Both the position numbers and the translations under genes were made by a program. Below, in pieces: positions 33,883 to 42,723 of a stretch of 45,828 nucleotides of DNA. Numbering within the stretch: the stretch's first letter is position 1; each line of letters begins with the position of its first letter. The notes beneath the pieces were generated by a model that ran no database searches, was not told the DNA's origin, and saw only the letters and a program-made list of their open reading frames with translations. The stretch spans positions 1-45,828 of the forward strand of contig RDOA01000027.1 of NCBI GenBank assembly GCA_011364925.1. Reading direction: 5' to 3'. The DNA is from Promethearchaeota archaeon (GTDB taxonomy: Archaea; Asgardarchaeota; Lokiarchaeia; Sigyniarchaeales; SOKP01).

Positions 33883-35947
33883 ATGTCTGAGGATAAGAAT
33901 AATTCTTACGATGCCGATGACATCCAAGTACTAAAGGGCCTGGACGGCGTAAACTAATTTATAATTCATGAATAGTAGCCAAAGGCGCAGGCCTGCTATG
34001 TATATTGGGGATCAAGGCAAAAAAGGGCTCCATCATTTAATTTATGAAGTTCTGGATAATGCCGTTGATGAAGCAATTGGTGGATTTGCCAATGAAATCA
34101 AGGTTACTCTTTTTAAGGACAATTCTGTACAAATTTACGATAATGGACGGGGGATACCTATTGATACACATCCAGAATTTAACAAACCAGCCCTTGAAGT
34201 AATCATGGAGCATTTACATTCTGGAGGTAAATTCGATAACAAGAGTTATAAAATTTCTGGGGGACTACATGGTGTTGGACTTTCCGTTGTCAATGCATTA
34301 ACAGAATGGATGGATGTAGAAATTTGCAGAGATGGGTTGTTGTATAAACAAAGATTCTCTAGAGGGAAAAAAGAGACAGAACCAGAAATAACTAAGAGTA
34401 ATAGTAAAGAAACCTACACAAAGATTACATTTTATCCAGATGACGAGATATTTGAATTTGAAAACAATGAGGAGATTTTTAGTCCTTCGTCAATTTCTAG
34501 TAGAATGCGAGAGTTAGCTTTCCTTACTCCTCAAGCTCGATTTGAACTACATAATAAAATCATAGACGAAAAAGAGGAGTTTTATTATGAAGGTGGACTC
34601 AAAGAATTTATTGCGTATTTAAACAAAGATAGACAACCCCTTCATAATGATATTATTTACATAAGTGATTCTGCTGAAGATGAAGATGGTGCCCTTATCT
34701 ATTGTGATTTAGCGATGCAGTATAATACGACTTATCAAACGAATATTCAAACCTACGCTAACACGATTAATACCATAGAGGGAGGCACTCATCTTACGGG
34801 CTTTAAATCGGCTCTTACAAGGACATTCAATTCTTATATTGAAAATTTCATGGATAAAAAGAACAAAGAACATGTTTTATCAGGTCCTGATACAAGGGAA
34901 GGATTATCTGCTGTGCTTTCTATTAAGCTGCCAAATCCACAATTCGAAAGTCAAACGAAAATAAAACTCGGTAATCCTGAAGTTAGGCAAGTTGTAAGTC
35001 AAATTGTCACAGAGAAATTGGCTCAATACTTAGAAGAACACCCTGAGAATGCTAAAAAAATAGTGATGAAAACAATTAACGCTAAATTAGCAAGAGAAGC
35101 CGCCCAAAAAGCACGGTCATTAATTCGTAGAAAATCGATTCTGGATGGTGCTAGAATGCCCGGAAAGCTAGCCGACTGTTCCTCGAATGATCCAAGAGAG
35201 TGTGAAATTTTCATAGTTGAAGGCAATTCTGCAGGTGGATCCGCAAAACAGGGGAGGGATAGAGCTTATCAAGCGATTTTGCCTTTAAGGGGTAAAATTT
35301 TAAATGTAGAAAAAGCACGAATGGATAAAATACTGCAAAATAATGAAATCCAATCAATTATTAAAGCCTTGGGAGTAGGAATTCAAGAATTCTACGATGT
35401 TAACGGTGATGAAAATGGTAATGGAGAGGAAGAAAATGCTGATGATGCCGAAGACCTAGAATCTGAATTTGATTTAACCAAGCTGAGATACCATAAAACG
35501 GTTATTATGTGCGATAGTGACATAGATGGGCACCACATCGAAACTCTTCTATTAACGTTTTTCTTTCGATACATGCGGCCATTAATTGATGAGGGTCATT
35601 TGTATCTTGCAGTTCCACCCCTATATAAAGTTTCGTATAAAAAAGATAAATTTTATGTCCTTTCAGATAAAGAGAAAGAAGAACAAATTAAAGAACTGAA
35701 GGAAAAGTATAAATTAAAAAATACTGATACAATTAAGATTCAGCGGTACAAAGGATTGGGTGAGATGAACCCCGATGAACTATACCAAACTACGATGAAT
35801 CGAGAAACTAGAACCTTAAAGAAGGTAACATATGAAGATTATATCGAAAATGATTTAATCTTTACAAAATTGATGGGAAGAGAGGTATTATCTCGTAAAA
35901 AGTATATATTCTCCAATTTTGATAAGGCAACAGAATTGGATATTTAA
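33883..35947 (+). CDS. gyrB: DNA gyrase subunit B, split by a 31-nt intron: join(33883..33951,33983..35947), 677 aa
   Basis: Exon 1 MSEDKNNSYDADDIQVLKGLDGV joins RRRPAMYIG; EVLDNAVDE, GGLHGVG, PLRGKILN, QRYKGLGEM. Confidence 0.93.
33952..33982 (+). other. Putative BHB intron in gyrB (31 nt)
   Basis: In-frame TAA plus frameshift; bulges UA|A and AA|A, central GGCG/AGCC (one mismatch), exon stem GGCCUG/CAGGCC. Confidence 0.82.
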
Positions 35948-38894: not shown

Positions 38895-39824
38895 ATGAAA
38901 ACAGAGTTTAATATCGGTTTCGATTGTTCTCATCAGAACAAGTTAAGTATCGAGGATCCAGGCTTTAATGATTTTATAGAATATCTCTTCAACTCGGATT
39001 TAAAGTTGGGAAAAATCGAAGCAGGAATCACATATGAAAAGTTGTCAGACTATAACGTTTTCATAATAGGAGTTCCTTTTGCTGGATCTTATATTACCGT
39101 CGAAGAAATCGACAGTTTGACCCAATACGTGAAAGATGGCGGGTCGCTTCTCATCATTAATGATAAGGGGGGAGAGTTCGAAAATAAGAATAATTTAAAT
39201 GAGCTAACGAAAATTTTTGGTATTAAATTCAATCCAGATCAGCTCTTTGATAACGATCATTTTTCTAAGGATATTTCTCGCCCGATAATTAAAGATTTTA
39301 AAAAACATTTTATAACTCGTGATCTTACCCAAATTATTCACTCTAACGGATGTACTATCCAAATCGATAAATCAGTAGAAACTGAAGATATAGATGTGTC
39401 AGCAATCGCGTTCTCCTCTGAGGATTCCGCTTGGCACAAAATATTTAATGGGGAAGTATGGTTAGATGAACCTGTAGAAAAAGCTCCCGTTATCGCTATC
39501 AGTCATTACGGTATGGGAAAAGTGGTAGCTATCGGAAATTTGTCTCTTTTTTCAGGATTTCATGCGTTATACGGTATACAAGCTGCTGATAATTTTAGGT
39601 TGATTTCTAATATCATAGCTTGGCTTATGAATAAAGCCCACTCCAAGGAAGCACAGTTATCTCAGCCAATTTTTATCACTATTCCTGTTGAACAAGATTT
39701 ATACTATTGGATGAAAGAAAAACTAGATGAAGAACGCTGGCAGAATGTTGAAGAAATCATAAACTTTGCTCTAAAAGTAGTTAAATTTAGAATGAGAAAG
39801 CAAGAAAGCCTAGAAGATTTATAG
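38895..39824 (+). CDS. GIFT/DUF4350-like (class I GATase-like fold) protein
   Basis: FDCSH.N, YVKDGGSLL, NLNELTKIFGI, GMGKVVAIG, DNFRLISNIIAWL pattern of GldG/IFT52-type domains. Confidence 0.6.
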   Translation: MKTEFNIGFDCSHQNKLSIEDPGFNDFIEYLFNSDLKLGKIEAGITYEKLSDYNVFIIGVPFAGSYITVEEIDSLTQYVKDGGSLLIINDKGGEFENKNNLNELTKIFGIKFNPDQLFDNDHFSKDISRPIIKDFKKHFITRDLTQIIHSNGCTIQIDKSVETEDIDVSAIAFSSEDSAWHKIFNGEVWLDEPVEKAPVIAISHYGMGKVVAIGNLSLFSGFHALYGIQAADNFRLISNIIAWLMNKAHSKEAQLSQPIFITIPVEQDLYYWMKEKLDEERWQNVEEIINFALKVVKFRMRKQESLEDL

Positions 39825-40438: not shown

Positions 40439-41174
40439 TTAGAAACTTTCCATTGTTGTACCCGATAATTTCTTATAATGATTAAGCACAGCTTGTCGAG
40501 CTGCGTAGACAAAAGCTCTTTTCACGTTTACCCCCGTTATCGCTATGGTTTCATATATTAAGCAGTGATTAAGCTTGGCGGTGTCGAGCACCTGTCGTAA
40601 CTTCGATATCTCTATTATACCTTCTAAATCTCTTTTATTTGCTAAAACAACGATTGGAACCTCAGGTGGATCGAAAGGTTTCGGTGGAATTAGCTTATCT
40701 CCGTAAAACTTAAGCAGTTCCTTGAGAGACCAGATGTTCTTGAGTAGTTAATCCCTAATTATTAACTAATTCTCCCCATTGGTCAATCAAAGAATCCCAT
40801 GTGAATATTACCGCGTCTGTACCTTTAAGAACCGTTTGGCGCTGGAATTTGTGGCGTCTCTGACCGGCAACTGTCTGTATAGTTTCTCGAGACGAGAAAT
40901 CTAATATACCTGAAATACCACGTTAGATACGCGTGCTACAACCCGGTCAAAGAATAATGTTCGGCCCGTTGGGTCTTGGATTTGCTGCATCTAGTGAGAA
41001 ACACCAAAATAGTAATTTCATATCACCTGAAGCAAGTCCCTTTATAAATAACAATCGAAAAGATTATTATTCTTTATTGTAGACCCACTCAAGTGCCGTA
41101 GTTTTTCCGCCTAAACTTGGTCCGTAAAAGCAAATTTTAAAGACTAAGGTTCCATCGCCCCTACGCGATGGCAT
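40439..41174 (-). CDS. MglA-family small GTPase, 5 exons: complement(join 41174-41072, 41041-41022, 40990-40904, 40874-40770, 40738-40439), 204 aa
   Basis: Spliced product has G1 YGPSLGGKTT, GRTLFFD, YTVAGQ, LANKRD, ETIA; SD GGAGGTGA upstream; absent from the ORF track. Confidence 0.9.
40739..40769 (-). other. Putative BHB intron 4 of the GTPase (31 nt)
   Basis: In-frame TAG plus frameshift; central GGAG/CUCA (one mismatch), bulges AA|U and AG|A, stem UAGUUAAU/AUUAACUA. Confidence 0.85.
40875..40903 (-). other. Putative BHB intron 3 of the GTPase (29 nt)
   Basis: In-frame TAG; central GUAU/AUAC, bulges AU|U and AG|A, stem UUUCUCG/CGAGAAA. Confidence 0.88.
40991..41021 (-). other. Putative BHB intron 2 of the GTPase (31 nt)
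   Basis: Frameshifting; central GGUG/CACU, bulges AU|A and AG|A. Confidence 0.82.
41042..41071 (-). other. Putative BHB intron 1 of the GTPase (30 nt)
   Basis: In-frame TAA TAA; central AUAA/UUAU, bulges AG|A and AA|A, 9-bp intron stem. Confidence 0.82.
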
Positions 41175-41346: not shown

Positions 41347-42723
41347 TTAGTCGCCTAAAGAATTTGAACTACGCTTCCTACTAAGACTAAATAAATAACT
41401 ATCCATCATTGAACGAAAAACAATAGGGCTTAAGTTCAATGCATATACTAATTTATCTGGAATGATTTTTCCATCTTCAAGATAGCTACTTAAATCTGAT
41501 TGTATATAAACCTTGTTCTTTATCTCAAACAATGATTTTACATCATCTAAGAGCTTTTTATTTGACGAATAAATCCTACCTTGATTACTGCCAATATAGG
41601 TACCATCACCATCATAAAAGCCCAAAAGCCACGCATGAGCCATGCGGCCTGAGTGTGTAGTAAACCATTGGATACTATTAAACCTTGCTTCCTTCTTAGC
41701 GTTTATAATAAATGACTTGATGACCTGGGGTACACCGATTTCCCCTGATTTTAAACCATGAAAATCAAGACTCTTTAAACTTTCTGCTATTTGACTAGAA
41801 GAAAACCTTATCTTTGAGGTCCTACCAGTTCGAACCTTACCTTTATAAGTCCAAAATCTCCTCTGCTGAGTAATTCGAGAAGAATCTAAACCCATGGAAT
41901 AACAAAAGTGTCTAATAATCACCTCATCTTTAATTGCTAATTCTATCGAGATTCTTGGTCGTGTTGATGACAAGCTTCCGTCTGCAGACAAGAAACCTAG
42001 CCAATATGCTTTAAATATCAAATTAATTTCATTAAAGAAATTTTTGCGCTTTATCGAATAGTCCTTTTCATGCCAATAATGTAAATCTGGATTATGCAAT
42101 TTGTATCGATTTATGTTCTCCAGAAGATTCATTGCATTACTTCTAAAAATGTTTTTTAAAGATTTCTTAAATTCTTCTAAACGTTCTAAAGTAAACTTAT
42201 AATCTGGATTATACCAACGCTTTGACTGTGGATTATTAATTGTATCCAATACCCGATGTATAAAATCTTTATCCCCTGCCAATATCAAGCTAAGTTCTTC
42301 ATTAGTAATAGCTACTTCGCCAGAAATTCTTCCTAATTCATTTTCAAGCTTTTCAATGAATTTTAGAGTACTCAAACCAGAATTAAGATTCTTATATTCT
42401 TGGATAATATCAATACAGCATACAACTTTAGCACCGAAGTTCCCTGCTAAATTCTTCTCAAGGAGACCCAGACTAGTCTCTGTATCTTCAAACCTGAATT
42501 CTGGATTGTAGTCTCTATTTTTTGAATTATTTATTTTATTTTTAACCCTTGCTATGTAATGAAAATTACTACCTCTCCATAATCTTGAAAGATCTCGATC
42601 AGAAAAACGCTTTATACGATCTGGGAAGATTTCAGCTAGGATTTCAGAATGAACGCGTAGTTCTTGACGCAAATCTTCAATTAAATCTAAAGTTGAATAG
42701 ACGGTATCATTAGTATAAGTCAT
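41347..42723 (-). CDS. Free-standing double-motif LAGLIDADG endonuclease-like protein
   Basis: AYWLGFLSADG and AWLLGFYDGDG motifs; about 220-aa N-terminal extension. Confidence 0.8.
   Translation of the reverse strand: MTYTNDTVYSTLDLIEDLRQELRVHSEILAEIFPDRIKRFSDRDLSRLWRGSNFHYIARVKNKINNSKNRDYNPEFRFEDTETSLGLLEKNLAGNFGAKVVCCIDIIQEYKNLNSGLSTLKFIEKLENELGRISGEVAITNEELSLILAGDKDFIHRVLDTINNPQSKRWYNPDYKFTLERLEEFKKSLKNIFRSNAMNLLENINRYKLHNPDLHYWHEKDYSIKRKNFFNEINLIFKAYWLGFLSADGSLSSTRPRISIELAIKDEVIIRHFCYSMGLDSSRITQQRRFWTYKGKVRTGRTSKIRFSSSQIAESLKSLDFHGLKSGEIGVPQVIKSFIINAKKEARFNSIQWFTTHSGRMAHAWLLGFYDGDGTYIGSNQGRIYSSNKKLLDDVKSLFEIKNKVYIQSDLSSYLEDGKIIPDKLVYALNLSPIVFRSMMDSYLFSLSRKRSSNSLGD

Follow-up and report, generated by a model that had tools for sequence, protein, structure and literature searches.

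How a coding exon of only 20 nt is kept and correctly joined to its neighbours when no cloverleaf holds the pieces together is a question that tRNA biology does not pose. It is raised by a small GTPase gene (41174-40439, minus strand) within a 45,828-nt stretch of archaeal DNA, in the following termed the window, that lies on contig 35 of a MAG of 3.9 Mb and 112 contigs from a Loki-type Asgard archaeon of the Promethearchaeota. The gene reads as five open pieces in differing frames, and this one ordinary gene would need four BHB splicing events, two of them 20 nt apart. For these two, a sequence-only reading had claimed that the outer stems of the introns on either side of a 20-nt micro-exon make use of the same nucleotides and cannot form at once, and that this implies ordered or regulated splicing through RNA refolding.

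A small GTPase gene in five pieces

The gene belongs to the Arf/Ras superfamily of small GTPases, an uninterrupted orthologue scoring 34.6 bits against the Pfam Arf model (cut-off 22.3). Within the same genus, orthologues are present in 29 of 42 genomes, mostly as a single open frame of about 205 aa, while the public orthologous loci used for comparison stem from Promethearchaeota/Promethearchaeia MAGs, Loki_b31 and Loki_b32 among them. The first ORF of the interrupted gene agrees with the N-terminus of uninterrupted orthologues in 35 of 35 residues. Alignment of the DNA with uninterrupted orthologues revealed four clean inserts of 30, 31, 29 and 31 nt (121 nt together) that are absent from 62 of 77 orthologous loci. 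As automated boundary scoring could not be relied on for inserts that were split in the alignment, only rows with full-length inserts, together with inspection by eye, were used. When the inserts are removed by the BHB cut rule, which places the borders of the first two at 41072/41071, 41042/41041, 41022/41021 and 40991/40990, an ORF of 615 nt and 204 aa with a single terminal stop codon results, the product of which aligns with intronless orthologues gap-free and at 96% identity (Table 1).

The micro-exon of the sequence-only reading is real, as established by the inserts found on either side of it in the orthologue alignment (30 and 31 nt, flanking the GLASGD codons), by the BHB boundaries and by the intact spliced ORF; in the orthologues, an 18-nt coding stretch aligns with the micro-exon. 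With regard to the fourth insert, 40739-40769 is the sole placement that restores the orthologue residues DQWGEN. The initial MAFFT placement at the site used in other species yielded DQLLKN instead of this conserved stretch as well as a poor motif, and was rejected. A spliceosomal-like GT-AG reading, in which introns 2 and 3 seemed to run from GT to AG, was likewise discarded, as the alignment excludes it for intron 3, where orthologues retain Val-Tyr, and for intron 1.

Two further observations concern the position of intron 4. It is located 9 nt downstream of the insert site in loci L014, L023/L068, L098 and L101, an offset that could have come about by sliding of an intron or by separate gains at closely spaced sites, and removal of 31 nt at either site leaves the frame open in this genome.

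Table 1. Exons, introns and pairing strands of the GTPase gene (all on the minus strand; exon and intron borders follow the BHB cut rule; a slash within a bulge marks the cut).
Feature	Positions	Length (nt)	Description
Exon 1	41072-41174	103	start codon, P-loop GPSLGGKTT, through base 1 of a Glu codon
Intron 1	41042-41071	30	1 + 9-bp arm + 5-nt loop + 9-bp arm + 4 + 2
Intron 1 central helix	41077-41074 with 41047-41044		AUAA with UUAU; bulges AG/A and AA/A
Micro-exon 2	41022-41041	20	bases 2-3 of the Glu codon and GLASGD codons
Intron 2	40991-41021	31	5-bp inner stem after one U/U mismatch
Intron 2 central helix	41027-41024 with 40996-40993		GGUG with CACU, one G.U; bulges AU/A and AG/A
Exon 3	40904-40990	87	
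Intron 3	40875-40903	29	central helix GUAU with AUAC; bulges AU/U and AG/A; weak outer helix (-5.1 kcal/mol)
Exon 4	40770-40874	105	
Intron 4	40739-40769	31	central helix GGAG with CUCA, 3 of 4 pairs; 8-bp inner stem; bulges AA/U and AG/A
Exon 5	40439-40738	300	includes the stop codon
Stem A, exon-1 strand	41081-41090		pairs with 41039-41030
Stem B, exon-3 strand	40978-40989		pairs with 41039-41028
Exon-3 AGACCCA	40970-40976		pairs with exon-1 UGGGUCU (41087-41081); long-range helix enclosing both introns

BHB motifs and splicing enzymes

All four inserts follow one layout: exon positions -6 to -3 form a 4-bp helix with intron positions -6 to -3, each strand carries a 3-nt bulge, an inner hairpin begins directly after the first bulge, and the exons are complementary to each other beyond the motif. 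The motif definition was taken from a preprint on Asgard tRNA genes (bioRxiv 10.64898/2026.10.13.758758). Introns 1 and 2 both possess the helix and the bulges of this definition, and cutting after bulge nucleotide 2 yields the correct mature sequence; for cbf5, cuts have been predicted between bulge residues 2 and 3 (PMC2738675). Of the flanking helices, h' (within the intron) comprises 9 bp in intron 1 and 5 bp in intron 2, and h (between the exons) has 10 bp at intron 1 and 10 of 12 pairs at intron 2, the two h helices being mutually exclusive.

On the side of the enzymes, the genome encodes two proteins matching PF01974 (100 and 70 bits), located on contigs 29 and 22, and one matching RtcB (560 bits). 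The chains nearest to the first EndA paralogue are 3p1z_B, 3ajv_B, 2cv8_A and 2zyz_B, which we take to be catalytic subunits of crenarchaeal two-subunit enzymes, while those nearest to the second are 5x89_A and 1a79_A. The presence of two paralogues fits the heterotetrameric enzyme type. EndA of this type is reported to cut relaxed motifs that lack the outer helix, also outside of tRNA (PMC5829648; PMC2738675). From the common layout we infer that the four inserts are BHB introns that would be removed from the pre-mRNA. A BHB motif scan of the entire 3.9-Mb genome with ORF-merging and codon-score filters gave flat counts over lengths of 22-49 nt with no peak at 29-31 nt, a result indicating that noise dominates such a scan in an AT-rich genome.

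A 31-nt BHB insert is also present in gyrB (33952-33982, plus strand). Its removal restores GLDGV-RRRPAMYIG in frame, its central helix has three of four pairs, and a 7-bp helix (GGGCCUG/CAGGCCU; -13.9 kcal/mol) connects the exons.

Two stems share the micro-exon

Stem A consists of exon 1 GAGUGGGUC (41090-41082) paired with micro-exon GACUUGCUU (41038-41030) over 9 bp, five of them Watson-Crick and four G.U, and is extended by U41081.G41039 to 10 bp (41090-41081 with 41039-41030), five of which are G.U. Stem B joins UUGCU-U-CA of the micro-exon (41035-41028) to UG-C-AGCAA of exon 3 (40989-40982) by 7 bp around one U/C mismatch, and an extension by GGA/UCC (41039-41037 with 40980-40978) brings it to 10 of 12 paired positions (41039-41028 with 40989-40978). 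Apart from these slight extensions, the coordinates and pairings of the sequence-only reading proved exact, and the stems are indeed the outer exon-exon helices of adjacent BHB introns. They have nucleotides 41035-41030 in common (41039-41030 when extended) and therefore cannot coexist. Of the 20 nt of the micro-exon, intron 1 takes up one in its 3' bulge and intron 2 takes up six in its central helix and bulge, such that two helices of about 10 nt each have to share just 13 free nt and the overlap becomes a geometric necessity.

Both stems were compared with a null model in which synonymous codons were resampled for the same peptide according to the codon usage of this genome (20,000 draws). 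A duplex at least as stable was obtained with P = 0.006 for exon 1:exon 2 (stem A), P = 0.003 for exon 2:exon 3 (stem B) and P = 5e-5 for both stems jointly. The 156-nt region as a whole (41110-40955) folds with a z-score of -4.0, and none of 200 shuffled versions folded equally well. For the five introns of the window, that in gyrB included, outer helices amount to -14.1, -10.0, -5.1, -11.9 and -13.9 kcal/mol, as compared with a mean of -3.6 kcal/mol for exon-exon duplexes at random sites of intronless orthologues, 2.3% of which reach -9 kcal/mol or below. Outer helices thus appear as a regular property of these introns.

Stems A and B across orthologues

An insert at the intron-2 site is found in five genomes (G000, L014, L100, L108 and L111). 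The interiors of these introns are unrelated and unalignable, and the central helix still pairs with exon GGUG in each case, by four pairs with CACU, UACC and CAUU and by three with CACA. The five carriers occupy ranks 1-5 of 79 with regard to the exon 2:exon 3 duplex (-10.6 to -10.9 vs. a median of -3.7 kcal/mol), although related genomes are not independent and rank tests overstate significance. In the stem segment, i.e., the micro-exon together with the initial 13 nt of exon 3, 27-31 of 31 nt are identical among carriers, while the flanks beyond diverge normally and the rest of the gene exhibits 70-76% identity in nine of ten carrier pairs (89% in the close pair L108/L111). Among non-carrier pairs of similar divergence, the stem segment reaches at least 93% identity in just 2% of cases. 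The five carriers are scattered on a gene tree from which the stem region had been left out. This pattern would be better explained by purifying selection that acts on the exon side of the motif than by recent transfer. A co-conversion tract as the source of the identical flanks of intron 2 is unlikely, since identity ends at the stem segment and the interiors cannot be aligned. The occupation of the intron-2 site would be compatible with repeated gain where exons already pair as well as with an old intron and many losses.

Stem A behaves differently. Among the orthologues examined, intron 1 occurs outside of this genome solely in L100 (JAEOTH010000183, isolate YT1_053), the comparison thus comprising two genomes (n = 2); a search of metagenome contigs for further carriers with a pattern spanning the loop to the 3' end of intron 1 produced a single match, in unrelated sequence. 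In L100, an insert of 30 nt occupies each of the two sites, the 20-nt micro-exon is the same, and intron 1 is laid out in the same way, several arm pairs having changed on either side, as read by eye. Stem A of L100, however, comes to no more than a scattered 7 of 10 pairs (-2.1 kcal/mol). On the other hand, L108 and L111 lack intron 1 and form 9 of 10 stem-A pairs. Taken together, stem A is not tied to intron 1, even though that of this genome holds rank 1 of 79. A conserved RNA switch would be expected to keep both helices conserved or covarying in the carriers, whereas stem B is present in five of five and stem A is missing in L100.

Across the Promethearchaeota, inserts of 29-33 nt are observed at no fewer than 12 sites of this GTPase gene (mature coordinates roughly 30, 38, 56, 68, 103, 123, 135, 202, 210, 223, 306 and 315), while most genomes have none. 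Insert-bearing loci include L046, L055, L057, L068, L098, L100, L101, L108, L110, L111, L114 and L014, and the gene looks like a hot spot for insert gain and loss. Locus L069 (1100-1300) lacks the first ~20 codons including most of the P-loop and starts with MGGKTT; this allele may be a truncated copy or possess an unrecognised upstream exon.

Folding of the unspliced and half-spliced RNA

Folding was evaluated thermodynamically, i.e., for RNA considered apart from ribosomes, proteins and temperature. Prefixes of 80-135 nt, in which exon 3 is missing, form stem A. Once exon 3 is present, stem A is replaced, and the full 156 nt adopt stem B together with a helix between exons 1 and 3 (-43.5 vs. 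-36.1 kcal/mol). According to both the minimum-energy fold and pair probabilities, the partners of the first 30 nt of exon 3 are the micro-exon (for 40989-40978) and exon 1 (for 40976-40970 and 40967-40962), and one unpaired exon-3 base separates stem B from the 7-bp exon 1:exon 3 helix. The minimum-energy fold of L100 has the same stem-B architecture. The exon 1:exon 3 helix is found in 24 same-genus orthologues, too, with 5-7 of 7 pairs, and as these are mostly intronless, the Trp-Val and Asp-Pro codons largely account for it; going by this distribution, the helix would be permissive and not evolved for a role in splicing.

Both BHB cores can be enforced jointly in the stem-B fold at -37.9 kcal/mol, and neither motif has to await removal of the other intron in order to form. 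The stem-A conformer reaches -34.4 kcal/mol with the BHB of intron 1 alone and -28.1 kcal/mol with both cores. In the unspliced ensemble, the BHB pairs of intron 2 have a probability of ~0.9. The central helix of intron 1, 4 bp made up of A and U only, is not part of the ViennaRNA minimum-energy state (probability ~0.02), in which the inner hairpin is 2 bp longer instead, and the canonical intron-1 motif within the stem-A conformer costs 1.7 kcal/mol. It is assumed here that BHB motifs often need the enzyme for stabilisation. After removal of either intron, a stem-B-type fold is still more stable by 6-9 kcal/mol; with intron 1 removed, stem A can persist as a hairpin. The refolding anticipated from the sequence alone is thus recovered in so far as stem A forms first and is then replaced by stem B, but both BHB cores fit into one and the same fold.

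Proposed processing of the micro-exon junction

The reading that we favour, with a confidence slightly better than even, is that of two adjacent tRNA-type introns, in which stem B is selected and stem A specific to this genome, a splinted fold follows upon stem A, and splicing order is biased and non-obligatory with no sign of regulation. EndA would cleave after nucleotide 2 of each 3-nt bulge and RtcB would join the exons, such that 30 and 31 nt are excised and the 20-nt micro-exon is retained. Stem B would serve as the conserved, selected outer helix of intron 2, while stem A, peculiar to this genome, would form first on the nascent RNA and present intron 1 as a full canonical motif. When some 30 nt of exon 3 have been made, the more stable fold would take over, with exon 3 acting as a splint along which the micro-exon and exon 1 are paired next to each other, and both BHB cores may coexist. 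In the splinted fold, the conserved outer helix of intron 2 would be in place, and an intron 1 not yet removed would offer its core motif at a three-way junction. According to the folding model, splicing is probably biased toward intron 1 first, during transcription, a kinetic order suggested by the succession of the stems. The sequence-only reading is retained to this extent: the pairing makes an order bias plausible, in line with the prefix folds, while neither an obligatory order nor regulation finds support.

An unlikely variant that still deserves consideration describes the micro-exon as bistable, taking part in one full motif at a time or in the exon-3 splint, with the consequence that the 20-nt exon is never freed between cleavage and ligation. 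If true, a bistable micro-exon would represent protein-only, structure-based definition and ordering of mRNA exons in the archaea most closely related to eukaryotes. Stem A, being statistically unusual (rank 1 of 79; P = 0.006), could conceivably have a real function and hence bring about a real ordering.

A strictly obligatory order, as the strong form of the original claim, appears rather improbable. Here, the mutually exclusive full outer helices would demand that one intron be removed and the RNA refold before the second cut, which could constitute a regulatory checkpoint. Such an order would agree with both stems surpassing the synonymous-codon null, with the strong enrichment of outer helices at introns of this gene family, with the clear succession of stem A and stem B in prefix folding and with the order-dependent, energy-ranked BHB processing of multi-intron pre-tRNAs (PMC3728597). 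Against it stand the geometry of the micro-exon, where overlap is forced in any case, L100, which lacks stem A in spite of having the two introns together with the same micro-exon, and L108 and L111, where 9 of 10 stem-A pairs occur without intron 1. Furthermore, the most stable fold accommodates both BHB cores, the two EndA paralogues point to the relaxed type that reportedly accepts motifs without an outer helix (PMC5829648), and persistence of stem A as a hairpin means that removal of intron 1 does not by itself free the micro-exon.

Equally low is the probability that we assign to a role of the alternative helices as tethers, which would hold exon ends together for ligation by RtcB and prevent loss of the micro-exon or a frame-shifting mis-join of exon 1 to exon 3. 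Skipping of the micro-exon would cost 20 nt and break the frame, exon 3 pairs adjacent to both other exons with a single unpaired base between the helices, and exon-exon helices are enriched even though the presumed enzyme type should not need them for cutting. However, the idea is purely inferential, and outer helices are weak at intron 3 of this gene and at intron 1 of L100.

Even less probable is an incidental stem A, where coding and stem B would dictate the micro-exon, exon-1 Glu-Trp-Val codons would wobble-pair by chance with its G/U-rich strand and intron 1 would be a relaxed core motif. While this would explain that half of the pairs are G.U, that L108 and L111 with their shared micro-exon sequence arrive at 9 of 10 pairs without intron 1 and that the stem is missing in L100, it has to be set against the P-value of 0.006 upon synonymous resampling and the first rank among 79; moreover, at -11.4 kcal/mol the stem would form in nascent RNA whether selected or not. 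Finally, a decaying pseudogene or small mobile DNA insertions that never leave the RNA, as four interruptions within one 615-nt gene might suggest, are highly improbable given exons without frameshift or stop that are 96% identical to intact orthologues, one structural cut rule for all four inserts, similar inserts at 12 or more sites of the gene in more than 10 other genomes and conserved synonymous sites beside intron 2.

Relation to known systems

In the searchable literature, tRNA-type splicing within an archaeal protein-coding gene is reported for cbf5 only. The BHB intron in the cbf5 pre-mRNA of Crenarchaeota resembles the case described here in being a tRNA-type intron in a protein-coding gene with the same cut position, in its association with a two-subunit endonuclease of relaxed specificity and in a conserved flanking exon that keeps the motif while the intron interior varies (PMC2738675). 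It differs in that cbf5 contains one intron at one site in one gene, whereas the GTPase gene has four introns, two of them 20 nt apart, and at least 12 insert sites in the Promethearchaeota. What the GTPase gene would add is a micro-exon, a strand common to two stems and constraint on synonymous sites.

Multi-intron pre-tRNAs of some archaea and of Cyanidioschyzon merolae likewise exhibit several BHB motifs per transcript and very short exons, and their order of processing is set by formability or stability of the motifs (PMC3728597). In contrast to the GTPase transcript, in which exon-exon pairing within coding sequence forms the scaffold and strict nesting does not apply, the exons of pre-tRNAs are held by the cloverleaf. 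Heavily interrupted tRNA genes of Asgard archaea share the lineage, the motif, repeated gains at motif-permitting sites and two EndA paralogues in most genomes; as far as term searches of the preprint showed, it deals with tRNA genes, with no mention of mRNA (bioRxiv 10.64898/2026.10.13.758758).

The stronger part of the case lies with the exon sequence. Synonymous exon sites are constrained toward building the splice motif, 27-31 of 31 nt being identical in genes that otherwise share ~73%, and this constraint is a direct signature, open to testing, of mRNA splicing that depends on RNA structure in Asgard archaea. The weaker part is the specific claim that splicing is ordered or regulated.

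Neighbouring genes

Upstream of the GTPase gene lies a single-copy ORF of 458 aa (41347-42723, minus strand) that contains a LAGLIDADG_3 domain (Pfam E = 1.5e-8) and stops 172 nt short of the gene. A homologue at this position is present in 3 of 80 public loci (L101, L068 and L110), all of which have a GTPase insert; GTPase inserts occur in ~11 of the 80 loci overall, corresponding to roughly P = 0.002 for the co-occurrence if loci are taken as independent. A homing-endonuclease-like protein is possibly linked to intron-bearing alleles. Another neighbouring ORF (38895-39824, plus strand) has a hit to Pfam family PF23355 (IFT52 GIFT domain, E = 7e-12); this family is associated with eukaryotes, which fits an Asgard genome.
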